From the NCBI RefSeq assembly GCF_004365815.1, contig NZ_SODD01000027.1:1-32000 (forward strand): a DNA stretch of 32,000 nucleotides, in the 5' to 3' direction. The notes under the pieces are model-generated. The model made no database searches. It saw only the letters and a list, made by a program, of their open reading frames with translations, and was not told where the DNA came from. This document shows positions 6,899 to 24,053 of the stretch, piece by piece. Numbering within the stretch: the stretch's first letter is position 1; each line of letters starts with the position of its first letter. This stretch comes from Breznakia blatticola. GTDB lineage: Bacteria; Bacillota_I; Bacilli_A; Erysipelotrichales; Erysipelotrichaceae. Made by a program: the position numbers and the translations under genes.

Positions 6899-6904
6899 AA
6901 ATAT

Positions 6905-7612: not shown

Positions 7613-7626
7613 TAATCCAGCCTTTT
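7591..7626. terminator. Bidirectional hairpin terminator between convergent genes
   Basis: AAAAGGTTGGATTA (7591-7604) pairs with TAATCCAGCCTTTT (7613-7626), giving a 14-bp stem with one G-U. T-rich runs follow on both strands. It sits between the plus-strand gene end (7612) and the EIIA-Glc end (7639). Confidence 0.6.
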
Positions 7627-8127: not shown

Positions 8128-9097
8128 ACTTTGCTTCTCCTTGAATTACCATTTGTGCTGCACCTGTTATCCCAGCATCATTACCAAGTGTGGCAAGTTT
8201 TATATCTGTTGATTGTCGAACAAGTGGAAATGCTACTTTTTCAAACACGCTTACAATTTTATGAAGTAGTATATTTCCTGCCTGTGATACGCCACCACCG
8301 ATAATCACGCTTTCTGGGTTTACTATATTGGCAATATTTGCACAAGCGACTCCAAGATCGTACGTAATTACATCTACGCCCTTGCATGCGAGCTTGTCAT
8401 TTTCTTTTACCAGATCAAACACGAGTTTCGCTGTTATTTCTTCATCATTTTCGATTGCTTTTTGAAGCTTTGAATCTTCCATAAATGTTTTACTTTCTAC
8501 ATATGCAACATTCACAATTCCAGTTGCACTTGCCACTGTTTCTAAACAGTTTTCATTACCACATGTACAAGTGAAACCATAATTTAAACTACTGTGTAAG
8601 TGCCCGATTTCTCCTGCACTATTTGCTGTTCCTGTAAGTATAGAATTGTTTATAACAACACCGCCACCGACTCCAGTACCTAGTGTAATAAATACGATAT
8701 TTGATGCATGACTTACACTTGCTTCCCCATACGCTGCACAGTTTGCATCATTGGTAAGATAAAGTGGCACATCTAAATCATATTGTTGGAATGTTTTACG
8801 GATATCCTGTGTTTTTGCCCATCCAAGGTTAAATGCATTTTTTACAGTTCCCTCTTCTTGGCTAACCACTCCAGGTGCACCTATTCCAATCCCTAATAGT
8901 TGTTTACTTGTATAGTTTTTGTCGACTAATGTTGAAAGGATTGACTTACACATATTTGGAACAATTTGTTTTCCTGCTTCGTTAGTGTCTGTTGGAATTG
9001 TCCAAGTTTCTAAACAAGTTCCTTCACTTGTATACATTCCAAACTTCGTAGTTGTTCCACCTAAGTCAATTCCAATTACGATATCTTTTTCATTCAT
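8111..9097 (-). CDS. glcK: ROK-family glucokinase
   Basis: Colinear with recalled Bacillus GlcK: GIDLGGTT, GIGAPG, NLGW, NDANCAAYGE, LGTGVGGG, GEIGH, zinc motif CTCGNENCLE, LGNDAG. Start set at ATG 9097 (MNEKDIVIGIDLGGT), an 8-nt overlap with the upstream gene's stop. Confidence 0.9.
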   Translation of the reverse strand: MNEKDIVIGIDLGGTTTKFGMYTSEGTCLETWTIPTDTNEAGKQIVPNMCKSILSTLVDKNYTSKQLLGIGIGAPGVVSQEEGTVKNAFNLGWAKTQDIRKTFQQYDLDVPLYLTNDANCAAYGEASVSHASNIVFITLGTGVGGGVVINNSILTGTANSAGEIGHLHSSLNYGFTCTCGNENCLETVASATGIVNVAYVESKTFMEDSKLQKAIENDEEITAKLVFDLVKENDKLACKGVDVITYDLGVACANIANIVNPESVIIGGGVSQAGNILLHKIVSVFEKVAFPLVRQSTDIKLATLGNDAGITGAAQMVIQGEAKYDENF

Positions 9098-9737
9098 TGA
9101 ATGCCACAACCTTTCCCACACCATTTTCGTAGGTAATCGTTGTCACACCAGAGTTTTTCAACTCTTGCTTTACAGGTATCGTTTCATCTACCATATGTAC
9201 AATTGTACGAATAACATTACCGTGTGTTACAACCATCAATTTGCTATCATCTTGATGCTTGTTTAAGATCATTTCAAGTCCTTTATTTAGTCGTGATTCT
9301 ACTTCCTTTTGGGTTTCCGCTTCGTTTGCTTGATCCACATCTTTAATTGCTAAAGCTATTTCATCTAAACTCAACGTTGTAAAGATATCACGCACTTCTA
9401 TATTTTTATTTTTTGCGACTTTGCCATACACATAGTCGCAAAAGCTACCATCCAGTGAGCCATAAAAGGTTTCACGGAATTCATACGTAGGGATGATTTT
9501 TGTTTCATCCCTATATGTATTTTCTGCCAAAATAAGATTTGCAGTTCGTATGGTTCTGCCCAGATCGCTTGTATAAATTACATCAAATTTTTCATTTTCG
9601 AGACGTTTGCCTGTCGCAATTGCATCTTCTTCCCCTTTTTGTGTTAAAGGTGCATCAGACCAACCTTGCATTTTTTTGTATTTATTTAAATACGTTTCCC
9701 CGTGCCGAATAAAATAAATCGTTACTTTATTACCCAT
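9090..9737 (-). CDS. Histidine phosphatase family protein (phosphoglycerate-mutase-like; likely a sugar-phosphate phosphatase)
   Basis: 215 aa with N-terminal IYFIRHGETYLN (catalytic RHG), SDLGRT, and a late THGNVIR histidine. Confidence 0.85.
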   Translation of the reverse strand: MGNKVTIYFIRHGETYLNKYKKMQGWSDAPLTQKGEEDAIATGKRLENEKFDVIYTSDLGRTIRTANLILAENTYRDETKIIPTYEFRETFYGSLDGSFCDYVYGKVAKNKNIEVRDIFTTLSLDEIALAIKDVDQANEAETQKEVESRLNKGLEMILNKHQDDSKLMVVTHGNVIRTIVHMVDETIPVKQELKNSGVTTITYENGVGKVVAFNE

Positions 9738-9768: not shown

Positions 9769-10755
9769 TTATTCACTTAATAATGTTTCCAATTGCTTAA
9801 TTTGACGTTTTGTAAATTCTGTACCACCACAATATAATTCATCTTCATACTCACAAATTAAATATCCATCAAATGACGTTTCTTTAATTGCAGCAATAAT
9901 TTCTGGATATGGGATACTTGCTTCTACACAGTTTTCATCTAGGTAGTGGAATTTACAGTGCATCTCAAAGCAATATGGCATGATACGTTTCATACCTTCT
10001 AATAATGCAGGCAGTTGCTCTTTACTTTTGAATTGTACGAATCCATACATTCCTTGCAACACACCATTGATTGCAGGGTGTGCATTTGCTTCTGTAAGTT
10101 TTGCTCTTGCTTCTTCAATATCCACACCAGCATAGCGCATATCTGCAGCCATTTGTAAGTGTTCTTCTTTTACTCCAGCTTGAAGTGCTTTCATCCATTG
10201 TGGTTTATTTGGTGCAATTGAGAAACATCCAAAGTCAGGAATAAATCCTAAATACTTTGATCCAGTCTTTTCAATCACTGCTAAGTATTCCATCATTTTT
10301 GGTGAAGTTGGTGTTTCTGGATTATGAATTTCGATACCAACATGCACATCATAAAGTTCAGCATATGGCGCCAAACGTTCAAATGCACTTGGTGATAACA
10401 TATATTGTGCACGCATCACCTTACACCCTAATGCATTTGCTGTTTTTAAATCAATGATTGTATCTGCAAGCATTTCATCATCACTTAAATCGCGATCATG
10501 ACGCATTCCACGATCGTTATTTGCTCCATAACTTACTGGACCAATTCCATACGTTTCTTTTAATCTAGTAACCAATCCAAGAAATTCATCACTTACATTT
10601 GGATACGATGGTAACATTTGTGTCCCAACAATTTCATAACCAGTAGCTCCGGCAAGCGCTGCTTGTTTTACACATTCTTCAAAATCATATTCATATCGTG
10701 CATATTCTGTTCCATAACAGAATAAAGTAGCACCTATTTTCATATTTGTATTCAT
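9769..10755 (-). CDS. Xylose-isomerase-like TIM-barrel protein; candidate C-glycoside deglycosidase alpha subunit (DgpC/CarB-like)
   Basis: 328 aa. The metal-site pattern of the AP_endonuc_2/xylose isomerase-like fold is visible: GIEIHNPE, IPDFG, HCKFH, CEYE. It lies immediately downstream of a DUF6379-like small gene and a Gfo/Idh/MocA gene, matching the dgpA-dgpB-dgpC order I recall. The fold call is solid; the specific function is inference. Confidence 0.6.
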   Translation of the reverse strand: MNTNMKIGATLFCYGTEYARYEYDFEECVKQAALAGATGYEIVGTQMLPSYPNVSDEFLGLVTRLKETYGIGPVSYGANNDRGMRHDRDLSDDEMLADTIIDLKTANALGCKVMRAQYMLSPSAFERLAPYAELYDVHVGIEIHNPETPTSPKMMEYLAVIEKTGSKYLGFIPDFGCFSIAPNKPQWMKALQAGVKEEHLQMAADMRYAGVDIEEARAKLTEANAHPAINGVLQGMYGFVQFKSKEQLPALLEGMKRIMPYCFEMHCKFHYLDENCVEASIPYPEIIAAIKETSFDGYLICEYEDELYCGGTEFTKRQIKQLETLLSE

Positions 10756-10763: not shown

Positions 10764-11198
10764 CTACTCCTCTACACGTACATCAAGTACATCTCCACTA
10801 TCAAGAGGCATGTACATATGTCCCGGTCCTATATTCATATATGGAACACGTAACATTAATTTCAACTCAATTTTGTGGTTACCTTTTGCCAACCCACCTT
10901 TTTTAATTACATGAATGGTTGCAGGTTCTACTTGACTCCAAAATTCAGTAATTGCATATTTTAATTTGTATACAGGAAGTTCCTTATTACGATATGCAAA
11001 CGTAACTGCTTCTTGATCAACTTTTTCTCCATCGATATACACTTCAAGTAGATCGATATCAGAAAGATAATGACCTCTATAATATCCTAGTTGTACATCA
11101 AAGCTAAATCCATTGCGTTTATTATTGATATACATGTCTTTGAAGGAATCTTTTTTTATAATCTCTTCATTTAATTGCATTCTCATTGCAAAAGCCAT
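10764..11198 (-). CDS. Small DUF6379-like protein; candidate C-glycoside deglycosidase beta subunit (DgpB/CarC-like)
   Basis: 144 aa with good RBS (GGGGGAAAG). The size, the LGYYRGHYLS-type segment and its position between an oxidoreductase and a TIM-barrel gene match my recollection of the CGD beta subunit family. No HMM was run. Confidence 0.55.
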   Translation of the reverse strand: MAFAMRMQLNEEIIKKDSFKDMYINNKRNGFSFDVQLGYYRGHYLSDIDLLEVYIDGEKVDQEAVTFAYRNKELPVYKLKYAITEFWSQVEPATIHVIKKGGLAKGNHKIELKLMLRVPYMNIGPGHMYMPLDSGDVLDVRVEE

Positions 11199-11209: not shown

Positions 11210-12313
11210 CTAAAATTTAATCTCTTTATTTTCAGCTGCTGATTTATAAATTGCATCTAATACTTTTGTAACTGCTAAAGCTTCTTCTGGTTTTACTAGT
11301 GGTTCTGTTCCATTTACAACAGCTTCTAACCATTGTTTTGCATCGATGGTACCTTCTTCACCACCACCGCCACCGAAGTATGCGACACCACCAACAGGTG
11401 ATAATGTTTCTTCCATTAATTGGTTGTTTTTTCCACGGTTATAGATCAATTCATTTTTTCCATAACTCATTCCTGAGTGAATTTCTGCACCAGCTTTTGT
11501 ACCACAAAGTGTAGTTGATGCTTCTCTTGATTCAAGAATATTTAAAGCCCAGCTTGCTTCAAGGTTAATTGTTGCTCCATTTTTCATCTTAATGAATCCC
11601 ATGGCTGAATCTTCAACTTCATATGTTTTTGGATCCCATGGTCCAAATAGGTTTCCTTCTGTTGCTTGTTCTAATCCACCAAGCTTATAAAACACAGATC
11701 CATTTACACTATCTACATCATAGTTATTCATACACCATAAAGTTATATCCAATGCATGTGTTCCAATATCAATTAATGGTCCCCCACCTTGTGCTTCTTT
11801 GTCCATGAATACTCCCCATGTAGGTACTCCTCTACGACGTACTGCATGTGCTTTTCCATAATAGATATCTCCAAGTTCACCATCTGCACATGATGCATGT
11901 AAGTTTTGAACTTCTGGACGGAAACGGTTTTGGTATCCAACCGTAAACTGCATTCCTGATTTCTTCCAAGCTTCTACCATTTTCTCTGCTTCTGTACTGC
12001 TGTGTGACATTGGTTTTTCACAGTACACGTGTTTTTTTGCATCAAATGATGCAATTGCAATCTCACTATGCGACACATTTGGTGTACAAATGTGCACTAC
12101 ATCTACATCAGGGTTTTGCAACACTTCATGATAATCTGTTGTCACTTGTGCGCCTTTGATTCCAAATTCATTTGCGGCTTTTATTGCACGCTCTTCAATT
12201 AGGTCACAAAATGCAACCATTTCACATAAATCTGCATTTTTTTTCAGTGCCGGGAATTGTTTTTGATTAGCAATTCCTCCACATCCAATAATCGCTACTC
12301 TTAACTTTTTCAT
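11210..12313 (-). CDS. Gfo/Idh/MocA-family NAD(P)-dependent oxidoreductase (DgpA-like position; candidate glycoside 3-oxidase)
   Basis: 367 aa. N-terminal Rossmann motif VAIIGCGGIANQ, then the CEKPM motif typical of the family. RBS AAGAGG 7 nt upstream. Confidence 0.85.
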   Translation of the reverse strand: MKKLRVAIIGCGGIANQKQFPALKKNADLCEMVAFCDLIEERAIKAANEFGIKGAQVTTDYHEVLQNPDVDVVHICTPNVSHSEIAIASFDAKKHVYCEKPMSHSSTEAEKMVEAWKKSGMQFTVGYQNRFRPEVQNLHASCADGELGDIYYGKAHAVRRRGVPTWGVFMDKEAQGGGPLIDIGTHALDITLWCMNNYDVDSVNGSVFYKLGGLEQATEGNLFGPWDPKTYEVEDSAMGFIKMKNGATINLEASWALNILESREASTTLCGTKAGAEIHSGMSYGKNELIYNRGKNNQLMEETLSPVGGVAYFGGGGGEEGTIDAKQWLEAVVNGTEPLVKPEEALAVTKVLDAIYKSAAENKEIKF

Positions 12314-12331: not shown

Positions 12332-13246
12332 CTATATCACAAAGTTTCTTAAATATTTCGTACTAATTGCGACTGCCTTCTTGGCATCATCATATGTTTT
12401 TTCAAACGCCTTATCTTCTACCTCAATACATGTATATCCATTAAATCCAATATCCGTTAATGCAGATACATATTCTGCCCAATCTACATCTCCAAGTCCT
12501 GGTACTTTTGGTGCCATGTATTCAAGTGGCGTTGCCATAACTCCGACATCTTTTAGTTTTTCTTGATACACTTTAATATCTTTATAGTGCACATGATAGA
12601 TGCGATCCTTAAATTCGTATAACGGTGCAATGTAATCAATTTGTTGCCAAATAAAGTGTGATGGATCATAGTTGATTCCTAAACGTTTACTAGGCAATAA
12701 TTCAAATACTTTTCGCCAGTTAGCTGGTGAAGTCATTAAATTTTGACCTCCTGGCCATTCATCATTTGTAAATAACATCGGACAATTTTCAATTGCAATA
12801 TTTACATCATTTGCTTCAGCTACATCTAATATTGGCTGCCAAATACCAACTACATCTTTTAGATTTTCGTCAACGGATTTTTTTGAATCCCGACCGATAA
12901 ATGTTGTTACTGTTTTTACACCATAAGCATTAGCTGCTTTAATTACTTGTTTTAAGTGTTTAGTATAATACTCACGTTTACTTACATCTGGATCCATCGT
13001 ATTTGGATAATATGCAAGTGCTGAGATTTCAACACCCTTTTGCATACAATAATCCAAATTTTCTTGAATCGTTTTCTCACTTAAGTCATATACATCAATG
13101 TGCGAAACTCCTGCATATCGTCTTTCCGCTTTTCCCTTTGGCCAACATGCAACTTCTACACACTCCAATCCGTTCATTGCGACAATATCGATCATTTCTT
13201 TGAAATCACTTTGATCTAAAATCGCACTTACTAATCCTAATTTCAT
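12332..13246 (-). CDS. Sugar phosphate isomerase/epimerase-type TIM-barrel protein (second copy)
   Basis: 304 aa with the metal-site pattern AIENCP, NYDPSHF, HVHYKD, CIEVED. Confidence 0.85.
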   Translation of the reverse strand: MKLGLVSAILDQSDFKEMIDIVAMNGLECVEVACWPKGKAERRYAGVSHIDVYDLSEKTIQENLDYCMQKGVEISALAYYPNTMDPDVSKREYYTKHLKQVIKAANAYGVKTVTTFIGRDSKKSVDENLKDVVGIWQPILDVAEANDVNIAIENCPMLFTNDEWPGGQNLMTSPANWRKVFELLPSKRLGINYDPSHFIWQQIDYIAPLYEFKDRIYHVHYKDIKVYQEKLKDVGVMATPLEYMAPKVPGLGDVDWAEYVSALTDIGFNGYTCIEVEDKAFEKTYDDAKKAVAISTKYLRNFVI

Positions 13247-13255: not shown

Positions 13256-14308
13256 TTACTTCTCAAATAAAATTGCTTGATTTGTTTCACTTGATTTCCA
13301 AGCCGCTTCCATAATCGCTAGTACACGACGTACCTCTTCATGTTTTACAAGTTGTTCTTCTTTACCATTTACTACATTTACAAAGTTTTGATAGAAATCT
13401 GTCCAGTCCGTTTCTACAGTTGGTAATTCTTCTGAATATAGTGCCCCTGCAGGTTGTGGTGCAAATTGACGTGTAGGACCAGCTACTGTTTCTGCAATTT
13501 GTGCAGGCAGTTTGTCTAACAATTCACTTGTTCGCCATATTTCTCCATCACAAGCAAATGTATTAATTTTTAAAGTCCCTCGATTTCCTGCCACCAACCA
13601 ACGCGGTTGATAATTCAAGACATAGGTTCCTAGTTCAATATGATATGTAATCCCATTATCGAATTTTAAAAGTATTTTAAAGTAATCATCTACTTCATAA
13701 TTAATGATGCTTTTTAAATCAGCAAATACACTTAGAACTTTTGCGCCTTTCATCATTTGGCATGCTTGGTCGATTAAATGAACTCCCCAATCGTATAGCA
13801 TTCCACCACCGTATTTTTTATATAGGTGCCATTCATGAATTCTTCCATTTGCTGTATGAAGTTTTGATTCAATCGTGAAAATATCACCAATCATATGTTC
13901 TTCATAAACTTTTTTTGCAATTCGAAAATCACGATCCCAACGTCTGTTTTGATGTACCATCATCGTTACGTTGTTGTTTTCTACCGCTTTTACCATTTCG
14001 TCGTATTCTGCAGTATTTAATGCTGCTGGTTTTTCATCAATAATATGTTTTCCAGCATTTGCAGCTTTTATCACCATTTCTTTATGTAAGTGATTTGGAA
14101 CTGTAATCAATACTGTATTTACTTCTGGATTCGCTAATAAATCCTCGACATCTTTGTATGCTGGATATCCCAAATCAATTGCTTCTTGACGCTTTGTATC
14201 ATCAATCTCACATACTGCGACAATTTCTACTCCCTTCACTCGAGTAGCATTTTGTTCGTGCCATTTACCCATGCCACCAAAACCAATGATTCCTAATTTA
14301 ACGTTCAT
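13256..14308 (-). CDS. Gfo/Idh/MocA-family oxidoreductase (second copy)
   Basis: 350 aa with LGIIGFGGMGKWH Rossmann motif and DEKP motif. First gene of the operon, with RBS GAGG upstream. Confidence 0.88.
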   Translation of the reverse strand: MNVKLGIIGFGGMGKWHEQNATRVKGVEIVAVCEIDDTKRQEAIDLGYPAYKDVEDLLANPEVNTVLITVPNHLHKEMVIKAANAGKHIIDEKPAALNTAEYDEMVKAVENNNVTMMVHQNRRWDRDFRIAKKVYEEHMIGDIFTIESKLHTANGRIHEWHLYKKYGGGMLYDWGVHLIDQACQMMKGAKVLSVFADLKSIINYEVDDYFKILLKFDNGITYHIELGTYVLNYQPRWLVAGNRGTLKINTFACDGEIWRTSELLDKLPAQIAETVAGPTRQFAPQPAGALYSEELPTVETDWTDFYQNFVNVVNGKEEQLVKHEEVRRVLAIMEAAWKSSETNQAILFEK

Positions 14309-14335: not shown

Positions 14336-14341
14336 ATTTTA
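14336..14341 (-). promoter_or_regulatory. Candidate -10 box (TAAAAT) of the oxidoreductase/TIM-barrel operon
   Basis: TAAAAT lies about 30 nt upstream of the ATG at 14308. The hexamer at 16-18 nt spacing is a poor -35, consistent with an activator-dependent promoter. Weak evidence. Confidence 0.3.
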
Positions 14342-14412
14342 CGAAGATTGGGACATTTCATCTTCCCGTTTTTTATCGCGAAGTTGATGATTTACATCCT
14401 TGTTTTCCATTG

Positions 14413-14455
14413 AAAATAAAAAAAAGACAAAATTTGTGATACATTTTTTGTCTTT
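14413..14455 (-). terminator. Rho-independent terminator of the AraC-family gene
   Basis: On the minus strand: AAAGACAAAA-(13 nt loop)-TTTTGTCTTT, then TTTTTATTTT. It starts directly at the stop codon (14456). Confidence 0.6.
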
Positions 14456-16774
14456 CTAATTCTTTATTAATCCACAATACATTGTAGATATTTGGTTTGG
14501 TGCTAAATCAATATCAACTGTCAAAATTTCATTGGTAACATGAACCTTTTTAATCATAAGATCTGGACTCGATTTTCTTGCTAGATGATCAATATCCATA
14601 CCAGTTACAAAGTTCACATAATCCCATTTCTTCCACTCATCAATTAGACTTCCGCTCGTTGTACTGATGGTAAACATTCGTACTTCATATTCTCCATTTG
14701 TTACACCTTCTAAGTGAAACCGGAACGATTTTGATTCATTATGGAAGAGCTGATTAATATCATTCACATGGATTTTATCTTTTTTAATATACATGGAAGG
14801 TTCGATATGACAGTAGTTGTTACACAGAATTCCAATATCATATCCTTCATCAATTGTCGCAATATAATTTGCATTTTTACCAATCACTTCACTACGCAAA
14901 TGATGATAAAACTTATATCCGTAAAATGCAGGTTTGTAGATACCTTGTCGATTCAATAGCCCATATGAACCATTGAGTAATTCGTTGGTATTTTTTGCAT
15001 CTATAACCACATCACACATAACATCATAAGCAATCTCATCCACTTCATCAGAAATACTTTGTAGACTTCGCACAACGTATGCTCCTTTAAAGCACGTATC
15101 ATTAACATAGTCTGGATATATTTTCGAGTAATTCCATGAAGTTACATATAGTGGTAAATCTTGGTATTTTGTTTGCTTAAGTTGCTTTTTTACTTCTGCT
15201 ACATCATTTGCTAATTTATCGTTATTTCCAATGTCCTTTAATTTCGTTTGTGAATCAATCGTATAACTATGCATGGTGATGAAATCAAATACTACATTTT
15301 GTTTCTCTAGTTTTTCAAATACATCATTATTCGCATAACCCACTTCAAATCCCACACCACCAATTTTAAAGTTATTACTATAACTTTTTAGCAACATGAA
15401 TATTGCTTTATATAGTTTTGCATAACGCGAGCTATTTAAGTTACTTTGATTACTTAATTCAAAACGATACTTCCCGACATTCACAATCATAAATTGATTG
15501 ATCAAAAACGACATGAATTTACGTAGTACTTCTTTGTATATATCAAGGTATTGTTCAAACATATCTGCATCTTGATCATTTACTTGATACTTTGCAAATG
15601 CAGGTGTTTCAAGTTCAATCATGACAGGAATATTATTTCGAATAAGAAAATTGAAAACGTTTTGGATTTTGTCATAATCTAAAAATACTTCATCATTTTC
15701 GATGGATACAATATTTTCACTAAAGATATCAATGATTCGAAACGATTCAATTCGCAATGATTTCCGCGTTTTCAACAACTGTTCTTGCACTTGAAATTCA
15801 AGCAACTTATGCGCTGGTCCAACATTCATCATTTTGGTAACTTGAAGACGTTGCGGTTTATGTTTTCTTACATCTAGTGTAATCTCCTCATGCATCGTTT
15901 TATTTTTATATTCATAGTTGAACTCTTTTAACTGTTCAACAACTTTCTCATTTTGGTCTATTGCTAGTTCTGCTTTATGTTCTTCTTGATATTGTTGACG
16001 ATATAAAGAAGGTGTTGTTTTGTATGCTTCCTTGAATGATTTATTAAATGCAGTGGTACTAGCAAATCCATGATCCACTGCTATTTGTGTAATATTTTTA
16101 TCCGTTAGTTCTACATCTTCAATCGCTTTCATTAACCTCACTTGATTAATAAAATCAATGAAATTCTTTCCTGTCTCTTGCTTAAAGTATCTAGAGAAAT
16201 AAGAAGAAGACATATAGAAGTGAGAAGCGATATCATCTAAGGATAAGCGTATATTATAGTTTGTATAAATATATTTTAAAATACTTTCCAATCGTGTATC
16301 ATAATCATCACTTTCAAGTTCCATATGATAATTTGTGACTAGCACATCAAGAAATTGAAATCCTAATTCAAAATACTTATAAGGAAACTTCTTATCATTA
16401 CTTGCGAATGTTGATATTAAGTGATGCATTGTATCGCGCAACATGGAATGATTTAGTGCGGTATTTTTTACAGAGTTACAATCAAAGCGAATGGTATTGT
16501 TTTGTAAGGAATCGCGCAATACGTATAATGGAATGACAATTTCACAAACCATTAATTCTTTACTTTGACTATGAATCTCAAAATTTTCTCCATAGTTAAC
16601 AAGTAAGAAATCATCCTTCATCAATGTGAATGATTCTTCTTGCTTATCAATAACTAGTGATCCAAAGACGACATAGAAAAACACAACACTTAATTCATGT
16701 CGTTTGTAGTCATTTACATCTGTTAGAATTTGAAATCCACTTTTTGAATCGAAGCTATTGAATATATTGTACAT
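14456..16774 (-). CDS. AraC-family transcriptional regulator fused to a C-terminal GH39-like (beta-xylosidase-like) domain lacking both catalytic glutamates
   Basis: 772 aa. An N-terminal cupin-like region is followed by an AraC HTH at about aa 160-260 (LSLDDIASHFYMSSSYFSRYFK...GFASTTAFNKSFK). The C-terminal ~470 aa are colinear with recalled Thermoanaerobacterium XynB (GH39): FELSNQSNL vs FEIWNEPNL, KLYK...KIGG vs KLYK...KVGG, DFITMHSYT vs DFVSRHAYT, LYVTSWNYS vs FHITEYNTS, GSYGLLNRQGIYKPAFYGYKF vs [21 protein letters not shown]. Confidence 0.85.
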   Translation of the reverse strand: MYNIFNSFDSKSGFQILTDVNDYKRHELSVVFFYVVFGSLVIDKQEESFTLMKDDFLLVNYGENFEIHSQSKELMVCEIVIPLYVLRDSLQNNTIRFDCNSVKNTALNHSMLRDTMHHLISTFASNDKKFPYKYFELGFQFLDVLVTNYHMELESDDYDTRLESILKYIYTNYNIRLSLDDIASHFYMSSSYFSRYFKQETGKNFIDFINQVRLMKAIEDVELTDKNITQIAVDHGFASTTAFNKSFKEAYKTTPSLYRQQYQEEHKAELAIDQNEKVVEQLKEFNYEYKNKTMHEEITLDVRKHKPQRLQVTKMMNVGPAHKLLEFQVQEQLLKTRKSLRIESFRIIDIFSENIVSIENDEVFLDYDKIQNVFNFLIRNNIPVMIELETPAFAKYQVNDQDADMFEQYLDIYKEVLRKFMSFLINQFMIVNVGKYRFELSNQSNLNSSRYAKLYKAIFMLLKSYSNNFKIGGVGFEVGYANNDVFEKLEKQNVVFDFITMHSYTIDSQTKLKDIGNNDKLANDVAEVKKQLKQTKYQDLPLYVTSWNYSKIYPDYVNDTCFKGAYVVRSLQSISDEVDEIAYDVMCDVVIDAKNTNELLNGSYGLLNRQGIYKPAFYGYKFYHHLRSEVIGKNANYIATIDEGYDIGILCNNYCHIEPSMYIKKDKIHVNDINQLFHNESKSFRFHLEGVTNGEYEVRMFTISTTSGSLIDEWKKWDYVNFVTGMDIDHLARKSSPDLMIKKVHVTNEILTVDIDLAPNQISTMYCGLIKN

Positions 16775-16810: not shown

Positions 16811-16835
16811 AAAAGGTGAAAGTTTTTCTTTCACC
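16811..16835 (-). terminator. Rho-independent terminator of the PTS EIIBC gene
   Basis: On the minus strand: GGTGAAAG-aaaaa-CTTTCACC (perfect 8 bp), then TTTTCCATTTT. It lies 14 nt after the stop at 16849. Confidence 0.6.
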
Positions 16836-16848
16836 TGATCGATTTGTA

Positions 16849-18231
16849 TTATACTTTTAATTTCTTTTCGACACTTTCGCTCCAACCAAACATGTACGTT
16901 AAACCAAAAGCTAAGACTAATGAAGCAACTGCTCCTAATAATGCTCCATAGAATCCCATGTCAATTCCTGCTGGATTAATAAGTGCTGGAATACCTAAGA
17001 TTCCTGTACCAAATGTATATCCTTTTCCACCAAGTAGTGAAGCAATTAATCCTCCAAGTGCTCCTCCTGCTAAACCAAAGATAAATGGTTTTCTTGCTGG
17101 AACATTAATACCAAATAATGCTGGTTCTGTAATTCCAAATAATCCAGATACTGCTGAACCTACACAAACTTGTGTAACGGCTTTGTTTTTTGAACGCAAT
17201 CCGAATCCAAGTACTGCTCCAGTTTGTCCCATTGCAGAAGCAAAGAACACGATCGCAATTAATGGACAATATCCCATTGCTGCAAGATTTGCAATAAAGA
17301 TTGATGAGAATGCTTTACTTACTCCAAATAAAACAAGTAGTTGCCAAATTCCACCTACAAGTACTCCAGTGATTAATGGACTAAATGCATACAATGCTTG
17401 AATTGCATCAGTAATGAATGACATTACTGCAGTTAATACAGGCCCAATAATTAAGAATGCAAGTGGTGTTACTACACACAATACAATCATTGGCACAAAA
17501 ATCATCTTTAAAATATCTGGAACGATTTTTCTAGCAAACTTCTCAACGATTGCTGCCAAATATGTTGATAAAATAATTGGGAATACCGTTTTTGAATAAT
17601 TAACTAATGTTAATGGAAGAGCAAACAATGTTAACTGTTGTCCTTCATTTACCGCATTAATGATTTCAGGTGTGATCATTGCACATGCGATAATCATTGC
17701 ATAGAATGGTTTTCCACCGAATTTCTTAGCTGATGTATATGCTAAGAAGATCGGGAAGTAATAGAAGATTGCATTACTAATTGCATATAGCACTAGATAT
17801 GATCCACTCGTTGGATCTAACCATTTCAACATTACAAATAATGATAAGAACCCTTGTAGTGTACCACTTGCTGCTAACACACCAACGATAGGTACAAAGA
17901 TTGCCGAAGCAATATCCGTAATTTTATCAAGCAATGAAGCATTTTTATCTGTCTCTGAAGATACTTCTACTTCACCTCCAGCTTTTGCTGGATATATTTT
18001 AGCTGCTTCTTCATAGTAACTAGATACTGCATTACCAATCACTACTTGCAATTGTCCACCAGCATCGATGATTCCCATTACACCATCAGCTTTTGCAAGT
18101 TCTTCATCATTCACTTTCTTACGATCAACTAAAATAAATCGTAGTCGCGTAAAGCAATGACTAAATGATTGCACATTATCAATACCACCAACTAAATCGA
18201 TTATTGTTTTTACATTTTCTTTTACACTCAT
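16849..18231 (-). CDS. PTS EIIBC component, glucose superfamily, beta-glucoside/sucrose/trehalose branch
   Basis: N-terminal EIIB with phospho-cysteine motif SHCFTRLRF, followed by a multi-helix EIIC. No EIIA domain. Start set at ATG 18231 (MSVKENVKTII) with RBS AGAGGAGAG; the ORF-track start at 18282 is a GTG without an RBS. Confidence 0.9.
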   Translation of the reverse strand: MSVKENVKTIIDLVGGIDNVQSFSHCFTRLRFILVDRKKVNDEELAKADGVMGIIDAGGQLQVVIGNAVSSYYEEAAKIYPAKAGGEVEVSSETDKNASLLDKITDIASAIFVPIVGVLAASGTLQGFLSLFVMLKWLDPTSGSYLVLYAISNAIFYYFPIFLAYTSAKKFGGKPFYAMIIACAMITPEIINAVNEGQQLTLFALPLTLVNYSKTVFPIILSTYLAAIVEKFARKIVPDILKMIFVPMIVLCVVTPLAFLIIGPVLTAVMSFITDAIQALYAFSPLITGVLVGGIWQLLVLFGVSKAFSSIFIANLAAMGYCPLIAIVFFASAMGQTGAVLGFGLRSKNKAVTQVCVGSAVSGLFGITEPALFGINVPARKPFIFGLAGGALGGLIASLLGGKGYTFGTGILGIPALINPAGIDMGFYGALLGAVASLVLAFGLTYMFGWSESVEKKLKV

Positions 18232-18316: not shown

Positions 18317-18330
18317 TGTAAGCGCATACA
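18317..18330. promoter_or_regulatory. cre-like CcpA operator candidate in the EIIBC leader
   Basis: TGTAAGCGCATACA compared with the recalled cre consensus TGWAANCGNTNWCA: one mismatch in either orientation. It lies about 85 nt upstream of the EIIBC start. Confidence 0.4.
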
Positions 18331-18543
18331 TATCATAACGCAAGAATAGAGTCTTATCTTTCGCTTTTTTTACATGTAATCTACGAAAAAAGAACTTTTG
18401 ATTTTACAAACATAAGAAAATGTAAAAATATATCACACGTTTTTTTACTTAAGTTTAACTGGTATTGAGTTTTCTGGCTAAAAGACTACTAAATTATGAT
18501 GTTTAACCGTAAAACTATTTCTTACGGATGATCTCTTATCTTT

Positions 18544-18623: not shown

Positions 18624-19625
18624 TTATATACATTGAATGACAATCAATACAATCCACAACAAACCTAGTGTAATATTTTGAATTACCTTGTTTTTATATA
18701 GTGGATCTTTGTATCGATCACGATACCGATTATAACTTTGTTTAAAAAAGAATAGAGAAATATAAAAATAGCTTACATAAAGTGGAAAACAGTATAATGA
18801 AATACCTAGTCCAATAAGATATAACAAGATCTTCCAATGCATATTCAAAATAGGTTTTTGTCGTTTATCCAAATGTTCATTAATAATGTCTGAGACATCA
18901 TCAACTATTGCACTAGCTATTGACTTCACTTCTTCGTTTCCAATATTCATCGCATATCCGTGAAAGATTTCAATCATTTGTTTATCGTTTCCGCCATCTC
19001 CAACAACAAGAACTTTATCACTCTTAGGTAAATGATGATCCAACAACCATTGTAATGATGTTGCCTTGTTATCGTGTAATCCATTTACATCGATTGTTTC
19101 AATATTTGGATGAAAAGATACTTCACTACCATACGCCTCTCGTAATAATTTCGTGGCTGTTTTCACTTTATCATATGTATCAAAGCGCATATCTATTCCA
19201 TAATAATCATATTTTTCAATTTCATCGAGTTCAATTTCTTTCGTGTAATAATTATAAGTGCTTGCAGCTTCATTATCACTTTCAACTACCATACGCTCAA
19301 ATCCAGCAGATAAAATATAATATACACTACTTCGCACGATTGGATCACATATGATTTTCTTTGCCAAACTTCCTGGAAACTTTGCTTCATAGATAGGCTT
19401 ATACGCACTGTTATACACAACTGAACCATTATTACATACTGCAAAATGAAATGGGATTTTGTATTTGTCTATATCTTTTTTCAACGTCAAAATATCTCGT
19501 CCAGTCACAAAGATGAAGATATTTCCTGCATCTATCCAATTTGTAATTGCATCTACTGTTTTTTTCTTTATTTCACCTTTCGAATTTGTTAGTGTTCCAT
19601 CCACATCACTTGCTAATACTTTCAT
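18624..19625 (-). CDS. Cof-type HAD-IIB phosphatase with a C-terminal membrane anchor (2-3 predicted TM helices)
   Basis: 333 aa with HAD motif I (ASDVDGTLT) and motif IV (VGDGGNDKQM). About aa 264-333 (18627-18836) are strongly hydrophobic: WKILLYLIGLGISLYCFPLYVSYFYISLFFF and ITLGLLWIVLIVIQCI. RBS AAAGGAGG. Confidence 0.8.
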   Translation of the reverse strand: MKVLASDVDGTLTNSKGEIKKKTVDAITNWIDAGNIFIFVTGRDILTLKKDIDKYKIPFHFAVCNNGSVVYNSAYKPIYEAKFPGSLAKKIICDPIVRSSVYYILSAGFERMVVESDNEAASTYNYYTKEIELDEIEKYDYYGIDMRFDTYDKVKTATKLLREAYGSEVSFHPNIETIDVNGLHDNKATSLQWLLDHHLPKSDKVLVVGDGGNDKQMIEIFHGYAMNIGNEEVKSIASAIVDDVSDIINEHLDKRQKPILNMHWKILLYLIGLGISLYCFPLYVSYFYISLFFFKQSYNRYRDRYKDPLYKNKVIQNITLGLLWIVLIVIQCI

Positions 19626-19638: not shown

Positions 19639-19665
19639 AAAAAAGGTAGGTTGACCTACCCTTTT
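19639..19665 (-). terminator. Intra-operon hairpin terminator/attenuator between dhaL and the HAD gene
   Basis: On the minus strand: GGTAGG-tcaa-CCTACC with an A/U extension, followed by TTTTTT. The 5' arm overlaps the dhaL stop codon. The HAD gene's RBS follows immediately. Confidence 0.55.
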
Positions 19666-20273
19666 ACACTGATTTCAAATGCTTCAAATAATAATACAGC
19701 TACATATGCTCCTGGATCTAGTAAATCTCTAGAAGCTTCTCCTCTTGTTGCTGCACGTCCATGTTTGGCAATCATTGTCGCAGTTTGTTCATATCCTTGT
19801 CTAGCTGCTTTACTTGCTTTACTTGCTAATTGCGCTAATGGAAGTTCTATGTTTTCTTTTAATACTTGAACTGCTGGATCAATTCCATCAATAAATGTTT
19901 TTTCACCAACGTTTGCCTTACCTCGATTGATAACACCTGCTTCAAAACTGTCAAAGAACTGCACCCAGTTTTCATTTGTAAGTTCATTTTGATTTCGTAA
20001 ATCTTTTCCTGCTTGCATCAAACCAGAAGCCATAAGCGTTCCCATCGTTGATGGCACTGCACTTGCCATGGCTTTTCCACCAGCATATACAAGTTTTCCT
20101 AGATCTTGTTCATCAGTATCTTTGACTGCAAGATATGCAGCACGAAATCCATCTGACATAGTAAGTCCTAAATCTCCATCACCAACAATTTGATCCATTT
20201 CGATAAGTGTATCTTTATTTTCTTGCATGATGTTAGCAACAACTTCAAGATATCGTTTCATGTCTTGTAACAT
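19656..20273 (-). CDS. dhaL: Dihydroxyacetone kinase L (nucleotide-binding) subunit, copy 1
   Basis: 205 aa with the DhaL signature VGDGDLGLTMSDGF (Mg-binding Asp cluster), in an all-helical Dak2-sized protein. Confidence 0.85.
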   Translation of the reverse strand: MLQDMKRYLEVVANIMQENKDTLIEMDQIVGDGDLGLTMSDGFRAAYLAVKDTDEQDLGKLVYAGGKAMASAVPSTMGTLMASGLMQAGKDLRNQNELTNENWVQFFDSFEAGVINRGKANVGEKTFIDGIDPAVQVLKENIELPLAQLASKASKAARQGYEQTATMIAKHGRAATRGEASRDLLDPGAYVAVLLFEAFEISVKG

Positions 20274-20281
20274 ATTGCCTC

Positions 20282-21292
20282 CTACATTTGTTTGAAGAAT
20301 GGCGTGTTGACTGGATAGTCAATCAATGGTTTAAGTTCTTCATCAACTTTGAGTAGTGAAATCGAAACACCTGACATTTCAAGTGCTGTTGCATATTCAC
20401 CTACATAATAACGATACGCTTTAATGCCTTTTTCTTTTAAAATCGCATCAATTTTTCTTGTAACGATGTATTGTTCATCTAGTGGAGTTGCACCTAATCC
20501 ATTAACAAGAACAGCAACTTCATCACCTTCAACATATGGTAAATCCGCAAGAATTTGTTGCATCATTTCTTCTGTGATTTGATCTGCACTTTCTAACTGA
20601 CCACGGCGAATTCCTGTTTCACCATGTATTCCCATACCGATTTCCATTTCATTTTCTTCAATGGAGAATCCCGCTTTTCCAACTCTTGGAACTACACATG
20701 CACTTAAGGCAACACCCATCGTGCGTACATTATCTGCTGCTTTTTGGGCAATTCGGGTAACGGTTTCTAAATCGTACATTTTTGCTGCCGCTGCTCCTGC
20801 ACATTTATAGACAAAGAAAATTCCAGCCACACCTCTACGTGTGCTTTTTTCTCCTGGTGCACTTGGTCCAGCACTAGCTACATCATCGGCTCCAAGCACA
20901 GTTGTCACTTGAATATTTTCTTCAAAGTCGGCCATTTCTGTAGCCATATCAAAGTTAAAGATATCCCCATTATAGTTTCCATAAATGTAAAGAACTCCTG
21001 CACCTTGATCAATGTCTTTGGTAATTTCAAACATCTGTTCTGCTGAAGGAGATTGAAATACATCACCTACTGCACAACCATCAAGCATCCCATCACCAAC
21101 ATAACCTAGAAATAATGGTAAGTGTCCAGATCCACCACCAGTAGAAATCCCTACTTTTCCTGGTGTTTTATTTTTTGTGACATAACACTGAAGATCATCA
21201 TTTACACAAGTTACTTGATCTTGATGTGCAATATAAATCCCTTCTAACATTTCTTTTAGATAGTTTTCTGGATTGTTTATAATCTTTTTCAT
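20282..21292 (-). CDS. dhaK: Dihydroxyacetone kinase K (substrate-binding) subunit, copy 1 (divergent GSGHLP motif)
   Basis: 336 aa, colinear with recalled E. coli DhaK: GGGSGHLP (canonical is GGGSGHEP), NYNGDIFNF, RRGVAG, EMEIGMGIHGETG, NGLGATP. Confidence 0.85.
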   Translation of the reverse strand: MKKIINNPENYLKEMLEGIYIAHQDQVTCVNDDLQCYVTKNKTPGKVGISTGGGSGHLPLFLGYVGDGMLDGCAVGDVFQSPSAEQMFEITKDIDQGAGVLYIYGNYNGDIFNFDMATEMADFEENIQVTTVLGADDVASAGPSAPGEKSTRRGVAGIFFVYKCAGAAAAKMYDLETVTRIAQKAADNVRTMGVALSACVVPRVGKAGFSIEENEMEIGMGIHGETGIRRGQLESADQITEEMMQQILADLPYVEGDEVAVLVNGLGATPLDEQYIVTRKIDAILKEKGIKAYRYYVGEYATALEMSGVSISLLKVDEELKPLIDYPVNTPFFKQM

Positions 21293-21299
21293 ATAGAAC

Positions 21300-21962
21300 C
21301 TACTTTAGTGTAATTTCTTTTGGATACGCCCAACTTTGTAATTCTTCTGCTGGGAAGAATTCAGGTTCTTTACCATTTAATGCAGTTAATGTATTGTAGT
21401 AAAGTTGTGCAAGTTCTTCAATATACGCTGCTTTTAAATACGCTTCATAAATATCATTTGCATCACATGCAACTGCTCCATGACCTTTCATTAAGAAACA
21501 ATCCGCTTCTTTTACTGGCTCGACGGCTGTTTCTGCTAGTTCTGGAGTTCCAGGACGACCATATGCAGCAACTGGTACACGACCTTTTGATAACCCCATA
21601 GTTGCAACTTCATAAACAATTGCTGGTAATGGTTTATTTAATACTGCAAACGTTGTTGCATACATAGAGTGTGTATGCGCAATTGCTACTACATCTTCTC
21701 TTGTTTCATATATTTTTAAATGCATAAGTGATTCACTTGTTGGACGTAATCCAGATAAGTTTTCAATTACCACTGCATTCATATCCATTACAATCATATC
21801 TCTAGGTGTCAACAATTCACGGTCAACACTTGTCGGTGTAATTACAACATAACCAGTTTCTTTATCACGAGCGGAAAAGTTTCCTGATTTATGTTTACAT
21901 AAGCCATCTTTTTGTGCGCGTTTTGCGATTTCACACACATCTTTCTTTAAAGCTTCTAACAT
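21300..21962 (-). CDS. Class II aldolase/adducin-family protein, FucA-like (ketose-1-phosphate aldolase type)
   Basis: 220 aa, colinear with recalled E. coli FucA. PTSESLMH carries Glu77 (FucA Glu73; the epimerase AraD has Asp here). Zinc histidines AHTHS and KGHGAV are present, and AIVYEV carries a Tyr matching FucA Tyr113. Confidence 0.75.
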   Translation of the reverse strand: MLEALKKDVCEIAKRAQKDGLCKHKSGNFSARDKETGYVVITPTSVDRELLTPRDMIVMDMNAVVIENLSGLRPTSESLMHLKIYETREDVVAIAHTHSMYATTFAVLNKPLPAIVYEVATMGLSKGRVPVAAYGRPGTPELAETAVEPVKEADCFLMKGHGAVACDANDIYEAYLKAAYIEELAQLYYNTLTALNGKEPEFFPAEELQSWAYPKEITLK

Positions 21963-21970
21963 AGTTCCTC

Positions 21971-24034
21971 CTATTTTATTAATATGTTAAGCATTTGGTC
22001 AACATCACTTGCTCGACGCAATGCTTTCATTTTCGTTTCATTCTCTGTTATTTCAATAAACTGAAATAATGGGTTTAAGTGTTTGGTACGATCTGGTGTT
22101 GCTAGTACTACAATCATATCCGCTTCTAAATAATCAAAGATCGGAATACGTTTTGGTAATCGTAAAAGTCCCATTGCAACTTCATTTACCCCATCATCAA
22201 TTCCTGCATGTGCCACGATGACACCATCAGCAATCGCAATATATGGTTTATCTTGTTCTATCGAATCAATCATTTTCTTTACATAACGAGATTCAATATC
22301 TCCTTGATCGAGTAAGGGTTTAGCTGCCTTTTCAATGGCTTGTTGCCATGAAAGTTCCTCATGTTCTACTTGAACGGTTTTCGTTGTTAGAATATCTGCA
22401 AGCGACAACTCTATTCCTTCTTGATGTACAACTTTTTGTGTAGGTAAAGAAGGATCTTGAAATAAGTACTGTTGTAAGTCTTTCATCATCTGTTCATTAT
22501 CATCGACTTGAGCATGTTTTCTAACAATATCCATAATCTCAGATAAGTTGATGCGATGTGGTTTAATTCCACTTAAGCTTCCCATCACCTTTTCTCTAAA
22601 ACGTTGTTTTGCATAATCATTTAGAAATGGCTTTACTAAATATTGTGGTTTTTCACTATCCAAACGTACCGTTGTAAAAATCAAATCGTATGGTTTGTCA
22701 TATTCTTCAAATGCACGAATCGATAAACAATCCTTGAATTCGATCTCTGGTAATAATTCAGATAGTGTGACATATAAATAGTTGGATACTGTCACACCGT
22801 TTGAACAAATTACAATCGCTTTTTTCTTTTCCTCAATGATCTCAAGATTTCCTTCTTTTTTTAGCCACGCTCCAAAAAGCACAGTTAAATACACAAGTTC
22901 ATCATCAACGATTTCACTTCCTACAAATGCTGCAAACGGTTGACTTGCTCGTCGTACCATTTCATGCAGTTGGGCATGTTGTGGTAAGACCATATCAATT
23001 GCACTATTTTCGATATGAAATTGATACTTCATTCGATAATATGCAGGCTTACAGTGTTGCACTAATGCTTCTAGTAGTGCGGATTTTCCTTGAATTTGGA
23101 CCAAGGAAATCTCTTCAAAGCGTTCAATCATATCAAATGCTGCATCAGTAATTTGCTTTTCAACTTCCACATCATCCGTACGCATTGAACTCACATTTGA
23201 ACTTTGAATTTGTGCTGCAATAAACATCCGTTCTAACTGATTTTCTACGGCATATTTTTGCACAAGAATATTGGTTGCTGTATATTCACTAGTTCCAACA
23301 ATATGTTGAAATGATTCAGCAATTGCATCCAATAATTTACCTTGTTTGATGCGACGTAAAATCAAGTATAGAATAAATGGTAATTCTTCCAAGCGCTCAT
23401 CTGTGAATTTGATATTTAGCTTATCCTCGATCAACATAATCGATTCATACACAGATGCAAATTCTGCTTCTTCAATATTACAGATTTTCTTTATGACACA
23501 AGCTCCATTTGGCATTAGTAATACTTTGCGAATCGCCGTGATTAAACTTTCACGTTTCGCAAACTCGCTTCCTGTCATTCGATATCCATCTTTTCTTGAA
23601 TAATGCACATCTACTTTGTAATTTCGACATAAGGTTTGTTGCAGCTTTTTTAGATCCAGTAAGAATGTATTCTTACTAATATTGAGTTCGTATGTAAAAT
23701 CAGCAGTGGATAATTCTTCTTGGCGGCATAGTAAAAGAAGCACAATTAAATACTGTCTTTCTTTATCTGAATATGTATAATCAGCTTCTTCTAGGTTGAA
23801 GTTTTCGGTCTTATATTCATCAATAACTGGTGCTGGAATTTGAAACTTTCCTGTTTTTAAACGTTCAATACATTCAAATCCATTATCCATAAGATAATCA
23901 TTTACTTTCTCAAGCGAATAACTCAGTTGCTTTCTTGATAAATCAAGCATGTCTTGTAATTGCTTTCCAGTAATTGTTGGATTATCTACGATTTGTAATA
24001 AGACATTACGACTTCTTTCATCCAAATATGCCAT
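21971..24034 (-). CDS. PRD-domain PTS-controlled transcriptional regulator (MtlR/LicR/ManR-like activator)
   Basis: 687 aa with N-terminal winged-helix/HTH regions and central PRD-sized helical repeats. An EIIB(Gat)-like segment carries a Cys (AIVICSNGVTVSNYL). The C-terminus is an EIIA(Mtl/Fru)-like domain (VIVAHAGIDDG...VVLATPD). No sigma-54 AAA+ module. Confidence 0.8.
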   Translation of the reverse strand: MAYLDERSRNVLLQIVDNPTITGKQLQDMLDLSRKQLSYSLEKVNDYLMDNGFECIERLKTGKFQIPAPVIDEYKTENFNLEEADYTYSDKERQYLIVLLLLCRQEELSTADFTYELNISKNTFLLDLKKLQQTLCRNYKVDVHYSRKDGYRMTGSEFAKRESLITAIRKVLLMPNGACVIKKICNIEEAEFASVYESIMLIEDKLNIKFTDERLEELPFILYLILRRIKQGKLLDAIAESFQHIVGTSEYTATNILVQKYAVENQLERMFIAAQIQSSNVSSMRTDDVEVEKQITDAAFDMIERFEEISLVQIQGKSALLEALVQHCKPAYYRMKYQFHIENSAIDMVLPQHAQLHEMVRRASQPFAAFVGSEIVDDELVYLTVLFGAWLKKEGNLEIIEEKKKAIVICSNGVTVSNYLYVTLSELLPEIEFKDCLSIRAFEEYDKPYDLIFTTVRLDSEKPQYLVKPFLNDYAKQRFREKVMGSLSGIKPHRINLSEIMDIVRKHAQVDDNEQMMKDLQQYLFQDPSLPTQKVVHQEGIELSLADILTTKTVQVEHEELSWQQAIEKAAKPLLDQGDIESRYVKKMIDSIEQDKPYIAIADGVIVAHAGIDDGVNEVAMGLLRLPKRIPIFDYLEADMIVVLATPDRTKHLNPLFQFIEITENETKMKALRRASDVDQMLNILIK

Positions 24035-24053
24035 CCTTACCCCCTGTTTCTAT

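Follow-up and report, generated by a model that had tools for sequence, protein, structure and literature searches.

In classical AraC regulators the effector is bound by an N-terminal cupin domain. Other sensors are built on enzyme folds, and these include the AraC types with a GATase-1/DJ-1-like domain, such as GbdR and FtrA, as well as pseudo-enzyme sensors such as the ROK repressors. The proteins AryK, Rsp and Rbf have been called "atypical" AraC regulators, with an N-terminal helix-turn-helix (HTH) and a divergent C-terminal region that is presumed to be signal sensing (PMC7241556). AryK, from Staphylococcus aureus, is a regulator of virulence and central metabolism with no known ligand (PMC3922988), and in the staphylococcal literature searched a glycosidase fold in any of the three goes unmentioned (PMC7241556, PMC3922988). 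For fusions between an AraC module and a GH39 domain, the literature searched holds passing remarks only (PMC8543862, PMC4730625) and no functional description. Here we describe such a fusion, encoded at positions 14456-16774 on the minus strand of a 32,000-nucleotide stretch of Breznakia blatticola DNA (contig NZ_SODD01000027.1, positions 1 to 32,000; referred to here as the window), in which both catalytic glutamates of the GH39 fold are replaced and which stands beside a dgp cluster for the metabolism of C-glycosides.

The open reading frame (ORF) has an ATG start and a good ribosome-binding site, encodes 772 amino acids and is the sole long ORF at this place. It specifies what appears to be a whole AraC-type regulator to whose C-terminus a GH39 fold has been added; the ORF, Pfam, AlphaFold2 and Foldseek together give a cupin-like domain, a helical region, a double HTH of the AraC type and a TIM barrel plus beta-sandwich resembling GH39. 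The regulator is regarded as complete because NCBIfam models of whole regulators (AraC, RhaS, ChbR and ToxT-like) align with its N-terminal part, over approximately residues 30-267, and because its relatives carry Cupin_2 or AraC_binding domains. The AraC/XylS double HTH DNA-binding domain spans residues 160-262 (15989-16297, minus strand) and is matched in the PDB by MarA, Rob, SoxS and RamA, while Pfam recognises HTH_18 at residues 182-261 (E = 2e-21) and HTH_AraC in two stretches (1.2e-15). The initial annotation had drawn this domain at 15995-16297, corresponding to residues 160-260, and had placed it correctly. Beyond the HTH, residues 316-738 match Glyco_hydro_39 (PF01229) over profile positions 22-458 of 472 (1e-28).

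The AlphaFold2 model of the regulator, built from a 147-sequence alignment, has a predicted local distance difference test score (pLDDT) of 91.2 and a predicted template-modelling (TM) score (pTM) of 0.76, and supersedes an unusable model made with a 3-sequence alignment (pLDDT 43.6). It predicts a beta-barrel at residues 14-81, helices at 83-149, the two HTH elements at 160-251 and linker helices to about residue 284. The GH39-like (beta/alpha)8 barrel occupies approximately residues 293-630 (14885-15898, minus strand; Pfam, phmmer, AlphaFold2 and Foldseek) and is to all appearances catalytically dead, and the C-terminal beta-sandwich of the GH39 fold occupies residues 631-769 (14468-14884, minus strand; AlphaFold2 and Foldseek). 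When the C-terminal half was compared with the PDB in Foldseek, the best matches were the GH39 beta-xylosidases 2bs9, 6uqj, 1px8 and 4ekj (E ~1e-31), at target-normalised TM-scores of 0.76-0.81 (0.78-0.81 for 2bs9, 1px8 and 4ekj), with iduronidases ranking next; no solved structure in the PDB was found to join a GH39 fold to an AraC module. The Pfam, phmmer and Foldseek matches all far exceed chance. A pseudogene or artefact was also considered and rejected, the ORF being intact, an orthologue being of equal length and the fold being confidently predicted.

The regulator aligns in phmmer with the beta-xylosidase XynB of Thermoanaerobacterium saccharolyticum (1px8; E = 1.6e-23), the XynB chain numbering being counted off the printed alignment. 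FELSN-Q443-SNL of the regulator pairs with FEIWN-E160-PNL of XynB, and YVT-S546-WN with HIT-E277-YN, E160 and E277 being the GH39 acid/base and nucleophile, respectively. The codons, which were checked directly and lie exactly where the initial annotation had put them, are CAA for Gln443 (15446-15448, minus strand) and TCA for Ser546 (15137-15139, minus strand). The WxFExWNEP motif of GH39 reads Y-R-F-E-L-S-N-Q-S in the regulator, the equivalents of H54 and W315 are Ile and Asp, and those of R52, Y230 and D319 are kept. The initial annotation had recognised the GH39 likeness by comparison with XynB and had proposed an AraC regulator fused to a GH39 fold without either catalytic glutamate; both substitutions and the fold itself are borne out by Pfam, phmmer, AlphaFold2, Foldseek (TM ~0.8) and the codons, and the alignment with XynB leaves neither glutamate intact. 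With both catalytic glutamates replaced, the regulator cannot, as judged from these alignments, be a normal retaining glycosidase. Hydrolase activity of the GH39-like domain is predicted to be absent, and the same replacements argue against the retained catalysis expected of a trigger enzyme. In comparison with XynB and with XynB1 of G. stearothermophilus (2bs9), the regulator shares the barrel and beta-sandwich, 19% identity and part of the WxFExWNEP motif, whereas it has Gln for E160, Ser for E277, Ile for H54 and Asp for W315, carries an additional 290-residue AraC module at its N-terminus and is not predicted to act as a hydrolase.

The fusion belongs to a large family. When 1.84 billion cluster representatives were searched exhaustively with HMMER, 1,521 matched the regulator at E < 1e-30, and the best 150 of these 1,521 matches are all collinear with it, nearly all full-length and around 780-850 residues long. 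It was this search that exposed the family, word-index searches with the query or with a 32-sequence profile having given almost only HTH-only matches. A scan of 185,579 species genomes with a 6-sequence alignment yielded 279 confirmed loci, 79 of which were kept; they are found in Clostridia, Lachnospiraceae, Paenibacillus, Bacillaceae, Companilactobacillus, Streptococcus, Erysipelotrichales and Mollicutes-like metagenome-assembled genomes. Several paralogues often occur within one genome. Relatives are named in the databases as "helix-turn-helix domain-containing protein", "GH39 family glycosyl hydrolase", "Beta-xylosidase" or "beta-xylosidase/AraC-like DNA-binding protein". In the collections searched, other members are at most ~31% identical to the pair formed by the window regulator and its orthologue in Breznakia pachnodae. 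The window regulator is, on these comparisons, a divergent, doubly Glu-less end member of a catalogued family that has been little studied mechanistically. The statement in the initial annotation that no characterised example of the architecture was known overstates the case, since the fusion is catalogued and common, forming a very large named family of Bacillota, and since AryK shares the full architecture at the level of hidden Markov models (HMMs). What appears to be new is the doubly Glu-less end member and the link with dgp clusters, a link that is unreported for this family in the literature searched.

Three active-site states can be read across the 79 genome loci. The intact-site state (R-H / W-E-W-N-E / H-Y / E-W-N / W-D-E) is found in Bacillaceae (Robertmurraya, Neobacillus and Bacillus) and in Anaerocolumna. 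In the mainstream state, which includes most dgp-linked members, the acid/base and the equivalents of N159 and H54 are lost and the nucleophile is kept. In the third state the nucleophile is lost as well, and is replaced by Ser in the window and B. pachnodae, by Val at four loci (L034, L036, L040 and L056) and by Gln, Asp or Gly in a few others. Among 152 family sequences the nucleophile column is Glu in 134 (88%; consensus T-E-W-N), whereas the acid/base column varies, with D in 55, E in 18, N in 17, P in 16 and further residues in the rest; the Asn ahead of it lacks conservation, and W-x-F-E-x-W has been kept family-wide. The Pfam GH39 score is 287 bits for an intact-site member, 153 for the mainstream member P0013 and 101 for the window regulator, which these comparisons place at the far end of a degeneration series. 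As to how widespread Glu-less fusions might be, a question raised by the initial annotation, the fusion is widespread, and most of its members lack the acid/base Glu and retain the nucleophile. Its term "substrate trap" is not apt either, as most relatives lack only the acid/base, while the window protein lacks both residues and has a broadly remodelled pocket. The mainstream Bacillota fusions resemble the window regulator in their full-length homology (E to 1e-157 and lower), in an equal domain order and in their frequent dgp-type neighbours. They differ in that they mostly keep the nucleophile, the cupin motif HxHxxxE...H and W436, W441 and W584, all of which have been lost from the window and B. 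pachnodae proteins.

All GH39 catalytic and -1 subsite residues are kept at L039, L042, L044, L045, L050, L052, L053, L063 and L069, and this intact-site sub-clade could hold genuine enzyme-regulator fusions, or trigger enzymes. The regulator of L044 (7896-10409) has two GH3 genes, an MFS sugar transporter, an esterase and a PfkB sugar kinase as neighbours, and the family as a whole therefore accompanies glycoside-utilisation loci. The graded series, from intact through loss of the acid/base to loss of both residues, is a natural system for studying the change from enzyme to sensor.

The operon that flanks the regulator gene downstream, on the minus strand throughout, is by homology a genuine dgp C-glycoside cluster, in keeping with its description as Dgp-like in the initial annotation. 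Its first gene (13256-14308) encodes a DgpA2-like oxidoreductase of the GFO/IDH/MocA family that matches PDB 9m37, an isoorientin complex, at 7.6e-100. There follow a xylose-isomerase-like TIM-barrel protein (12332-13246; Pfam, with weak PDB matches to 2zds and 8ro4 and a weak match to 2-hydroxy-3-keto-glucal hydratase), which is possibly a keto-glucal hydratase or isomerase, and DgpA, the C-glycoside 3''-oxidase (11210-12313), which is 80.6% identical to DgpA of strain PUE and matches 7xr9 at E = 5e-205. The C-glycoside deglycosidase is represented by its beta subunit DgpB (DUF6379; 144 residues; 10764-11198; 9m3a_B at 2.5e-46 and 7bvr_B at 1.5e-25) and its alpha subunit DgpC (9769-10755; 9m3a_A at 1.3e-119 and 7bvr_A at 1.6e-98). 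The DgpA oxidase and the DgpB/DgpC pair are encoded together, in the order GFO, small ORF, TIM. The distal genes of the operon encode a histidine-phosphatase-family protein (9090-9737), a ROK kinase (8111-9124) and an EIIA-Glc-type protein of the phosphotransferase system (PTS; 7639-8127), and a palindromic terminator at 7591-7626 closes it. Upstream of the regulator gene, a PTS EIIBC of the beta-glucoside family is encoded at 16849-18231 (minus strand), with a likely ATG at 18231, the mechanical ORF extending to a GTG at 18282.

The locus of B. pachnodae DSM 16784 (L001) is fully syntenic, with 81% identity in EIIBC, 71% in the regulator and 85-91% in the enzymes. More widely, GFO- and TIM-type dgp genes, including the rare DgpB/DUF6379, lie within 8 kb of the regulator at ~37 of the 79 loci, often directly downstream in the same orientation, with 60-88% identity to the window enzymes. 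The regulators at these dgp-linked loci are, unlike their enzymes, only 25-30% identical, which suggests that the dgp enzyme genes either have spread horizontally or evolve at a very different rate from the regulators. Strain PUE, the source of the DgpA compared above, is a Dorea-like member of the Lachnospiraceae, in contrast to the closest genome to the window, which is that of a Breznakia (Erysipelotrichales). At another locus (L015), on a contig labelled Parabacteroides distasonis, the regulator is of the Bacillota type and agrees in its key residues and its length (813 residues) with that of L008 from Acutalibacteraceae, and the DgpA is 88% identical to that of the window; the contig was probably mislabelled or wrongly binned in the source assembly.

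The promoters of the dgp operon and of the PTS gene share a motif, RTAAAAAANGNGAR, that was found by aligning the intergenic regions of the window and B. pachnodae and by comparing both promoters. A first 16-nt pattern retrieved the PTS site only, and a 14-nt core retrieved both. On the gene strand the motif has exactly two sites in the 32-kb window (14363-14376 and 18360-18373, with 0.06 expected) and exactly two in the 18-kb locus L001, at the orthologous places. At the dgp promoter the candidate operator ATAAAAAACGGGAA (14363-14376, minus strand) has a TAAAAAA core that starts 34 nt upstream of the -10 element TAAAAT (14336-14341); at the PTS promoter the core of the candidate operator GTAAAAAAAGCGAA (18360-18373, minus strand) starts 35 nt upstream of the -10 element TATGAT (18332-18337). 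All four promoters, two per species, have this offset of 34-35 nt and have no -35 hexamer, as the initial annotation had already noted for the dgp promoter. Class-II activator sites of the AraC type classically sit at such a place, overlapping the -35 region. What supports the operator independently is that no other matches occur and that the two promoters, which are not homologous, have equal spacing. A weak direct repeat, GATGTAAATC / GATAAAAAAC, with a spacing of ~22 bp, is also present at the dgp promoter, and a conserved inverted repeat, TTTTTACAT ... ATGTAAAAA, with arms ~45 bp apart (18350-18427), lies upstream of the PTS promoter, its downstream arm overlapping the candidate operator.

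Just downstream of the PTS -10 element lies a palindrome, TGTATGCGCTTACA (18317-18330, minus strand), that resembles the catabolite-responsive element (cre) and is 14/14 identical in B. pachnodae. Across the window the cre consensus shows no enrichment, with 3 matches where 3.1 are expected, so that it is the position and conservation of this site that suggest CcpA-mediated catabolite repression of glycoside uptake. Two terminator-like hairpins on the minus strand bound the regulator gene. One, between the PTS and regulator genes (16814-16836), is kept in B. pachnodae with compensatory changes; the other, AGACAAAA...TTTTGTCT followed by a T-run (14418-14453), lies right after the regulator stop codon and is likewise kept.

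We propose that the regulator is a one-component transcription activator of the AraC/XylS type, dedicated to its own dgp cluster. The gene would be transcribed as its own unit between the two terminators, and its product would bind RTAAAAAANGNGAR sites that overlap the missing -35 elements of two promoters, those of the 8-gene dgp operon (14308 to 7639) and of the beta-glucoside-type PTS EIIBC gene, the latter being additionally under cre/CcpA catabolite control. The C-terminal 480 residues would bind the effector, an aryl glycoside or an intermediate of the pathway, without hydrolysing it, and would control the central HTH. The effector is likely to be an aryl C- or O-glucoside, or a 3-keto or 6-phospho derivative of one, given the genomic context. 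Control of the dgp operon and PTS gene had been suggested in the initial annotation from position, and it gains comparative support from the adjacency at ~37 of 79 loci and from the promoter motif common to two species. That the protein regulates the dgp cluster can be held with good confidence, the best-supported reading being a monocistronic, effector-responsive activator of the AraC type for the dgp operon and its PTS transporter. The proposal as a whole, a dgp and PTS activator with a dead GH39 effector module, has somewhat better than even chances, and the assignment of effector binding to the dead GH39 fold falls a little short of even.

It is this last assignment that meets the strongest competitor. 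The case for the GH39-like module lies in the conservation of its catalytic face, in the nucleophile kept in 88% of the family and in a hypervariable loop. The GH39-like segments that are most conserved family-wide are the strand ends of the catalytic face (R346, W436-x-F-E439, D497-F498, T-E-W-N and D588), which argues for a functional pocket, and the rim loop 442-449 is hypervariable, as would be expected of a specificity determinant. Alternatively, the sensor could be the N-terminal cupin, as in AraC and RhaS, with the GH39-like part serving as a scaffold for oligomerisation or stability or as an accessory input; GH39 xylosidases are indeed oligomeric. This cupin-like beta-barrel, which went unnoticed in the initial annotation, comprises residues 14-82 (16529-16735, minus strand; DSSP of the AlphaFold2 model). 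The first 270 residues align with whole classical AraC regulators, relatives have a recognisable Cupin_2 or AraC_binding domain, and the cupin metal motif HxHxxxE...H (columns of residues 25, 27, 31 and 65) is complete in 52-62% of the family, which hints at a metal-dependent function or at ligand contact. In the window regulator, though, it is the cupin that has degenerated further: the metal motif has gone (R25, E27, V31 and F65) and the Cupin_2 match is below threshold (E = 0.006; 16.7 bits against a cut-off of 27.2), whereas relatives are clearly positive. Nor would a pure scaffold be expected to conserve a catalytic face, nucleophile included. Sensing by the cupin is rated as rather unlikely, and the GH39-like domain is the most likely sensor. 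The motif is mostly lost from the B. pachnodae orthologue as well (H, D, V and F).

A second alternative is that the regulator is a repressor or has other targets, the motif being an UP-like element or a coincidence. In its favour, the genome is AT-rich, the motif itself is rich in A and its pattern was set post hoc, and AryK affects many metabolic genes globally (PMC3922988). Against this, neither promoter has a -35, the motif keeps its distance of 34-35 nt in both of them and in both species, no further matches occur in the 32 kb or the 18 kb, and the adjacency to dgp genes is conserved. AraC-family proteins are, in addition, predominantly activators. We regard this alternative as improbable, and both activation and the identity of the operator as putative readings of the promoter comparison.

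Less probable still is a GH39-like domain without function, the relic of a protein that was once both enzyme and regulator. Both catalytic glutamates have gone, the regulator keeps only 36 of 64 family-conserved positions in the TIM barrel (28 changed) against 30 of 35 in the HTH, and the Pfam score falls from 287 through 153 to 101 bits. On the other side, some 480 residues have been kept in frame with a confident fold, and the B. pachnodae orthologue is of equal length and 71% identical overall, with 68-72% in the GH39-like part, on a par with the 70% of the cupin; by this comparison the gene has stayed intact under constraint. Of the 28 barrel residues at which the regulator departs from the family, 25 are common to the two orthologues, and this, together with the identity within the domain, indicates that the pocket was remodelled in their common ancestor and then maintained rather than left to decay. 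That the domain still acts by a non-canonical mechanism, coupling turnover to regulation, is hardly credible for this protein, in which the nucleophile, the acid/base and the H54 and W315 equivalents are all replaced, although some relatives keep every catalytic and -1 subsite residue and such coupling may therefore exist elsewhere in the family.

Several points weigh against the activator with a GH39-like effector module. The operator pattern was derived post hoc from the same four sites that it then found, and the footprinting rests on two genomes. The presence of a putative AraC-type cupin means that the GH39-like part need not be the sensor. Within the pocket, residues that are otherwise conserved are replaced in the window lineage (W436Y, W441S, E546S and W584D), and the acid/base position differs between the window and B. 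pachnodae orthologues (Q and H, respectively); such heavy replacement could mean relaxed constraint on ligand binding. Finally, the literature searched contains no ligand, DNA-site or structural work on any AraC-GH39 member.

The role of the PTS raises a separate matter. Uptake through EIIBC and the distal EIIA would give a 6-phospho-glycoside, which differs from the known substrate of DgpA; the histidine-phosphatase-family protein might strip the phosphate, and the arrangement represents an unexplained variant of the dgp pathway. Other PTS-linked members of the family are found at L038, L066, L067, L070 and L076. The idea that the pocket changes are an adaptation to a PTS-made 6-phospho-glycoside was not supported, since no more than 5 of the 21 lineage substitutions recur in any other PTS-linked member.

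Among characterised regulators, the closest in architecture is AryK (NF047455; SAA6159_00084 / SA0097). The two proteins are laid out collinearly, each with a cupin-like N-domain that is followed, near the N-terminal third, by the HTH and then by a long C-terminal domain. The AryK HMM from NCBIfam covers residues 26-762 of the regulator (model positions 19-750 of 759) at E = 3.7e-50, and it is the sole family match of the GH39-like part alone (residues 297-762; E = 3.7e-15), from which it follows that AryK shares the whole architecture. The regulator scores 171 bits against an equivalog cut-off of 850 and is therefore a distant homologue of AryK, not an orthologue. In contrast to the window regulator, AryK has no dgp context. 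Rsp and Rbf are more distant in likeness, Rsp matching the regulator only over its N-terminal 300 residues, and none of AryK, Rsp and Rbf was among the best 120 matches of a search with P0013, the family member closest to AryK. The homology with AryK suggests a ligand class for an orphan virulence regulator of S. aureus. With GbdR, FtrA and the ROK-type sensors, the window regulator has in common the recruitment of a catalytic fold as a presumed effector-binding module for a DNA-binding domain; it differs in that the fold is GH39 (clan GH-A), in that the candidate sensor is C-terminal to the HTH and in the additional, putatively classical cupin.

The family also has a bearing on annotation. 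Hundreds to thousands of proteins that are labelled "GH39" or "beta-xylosidase" carry a complete AraC module and most are without the acid/base, with the consequence that censuses of carbohydrate-active enzymes over-count xylosidases. Catenibacillus genomes are reported to hold 21-28 "GH39" genes, paradoxically with no xylosidase or beta-glucosidase activity (PMC11170127). One of these genes, HNP82_000212 (2,496 nt, ~831 residues), is called "response regulator yesN" by RAST and "GH39(328-779)" by dbCAN (PMC11170127 supplement). Two loci of the present family (L041 and L075) come from C. scindens, and it follows from these and from the architecture of HNP82_000212 that at least some of the Catenibacillus "enzymes" are these regulators; the GH39 count of this genus probably reflects regulators. 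The metabolism of C-glycosides determines the bioavailability of dietary and medicinal polyphenols, and in the literature searched no description was found of how bacterial metabolism of C-glycosides (puerarin, isoorientin and similar) is regulated; the AraC-GH39 family provides a concrete candidate regulator with a candidate operator.

A broader reading may be offered tentatively, and taken jointly its parts are more likely to fail than to hold. AraC-GH39-like proteins would be dedicated, rapidly diversifying intracellular sensors for oxidative deglycosylation loci of the dgp/dfg type, acting on aryl C- and O-glycosides across gut and soil Bacillota, with the former active site reading the glycoside. 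The 21-28 GH39 genes of Catenibacillus would be a sensor repertoire, much as Bacteroides has its hybrid two-component systems, AryK would by homology be a virulence regulator that senses glycosides, and the window protein would be the non-catalytic end point of a transition from enzyme to sensor of which intermediates are extant.

The remainder of the window contains further genes. Directly upstream of the PTS promoter, positions 18624-19625 encode a Cof-type HAD phosphatase (residues 1-245) with a hydrophobic C-terminal extension of ~85 residues that has a membrane-spanning look. A second sugar-utilisation block (19656-27857) includes two pairs of Dak1/Dak2 dihydroxyacetone kinases, a class II aldolase, a PRD/Mga-type regulator with an EIIA-2 domain (21971-24034), an ascorbate/GAT-family EIIC and a separate EIIA-2. 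At the other end of the dgp operon, a 264-residue ORF on the plus strand (6818-7612), for which Pfam gave no match at E <= 0.001, ends at the same terminator (7591-7626) as the operon.

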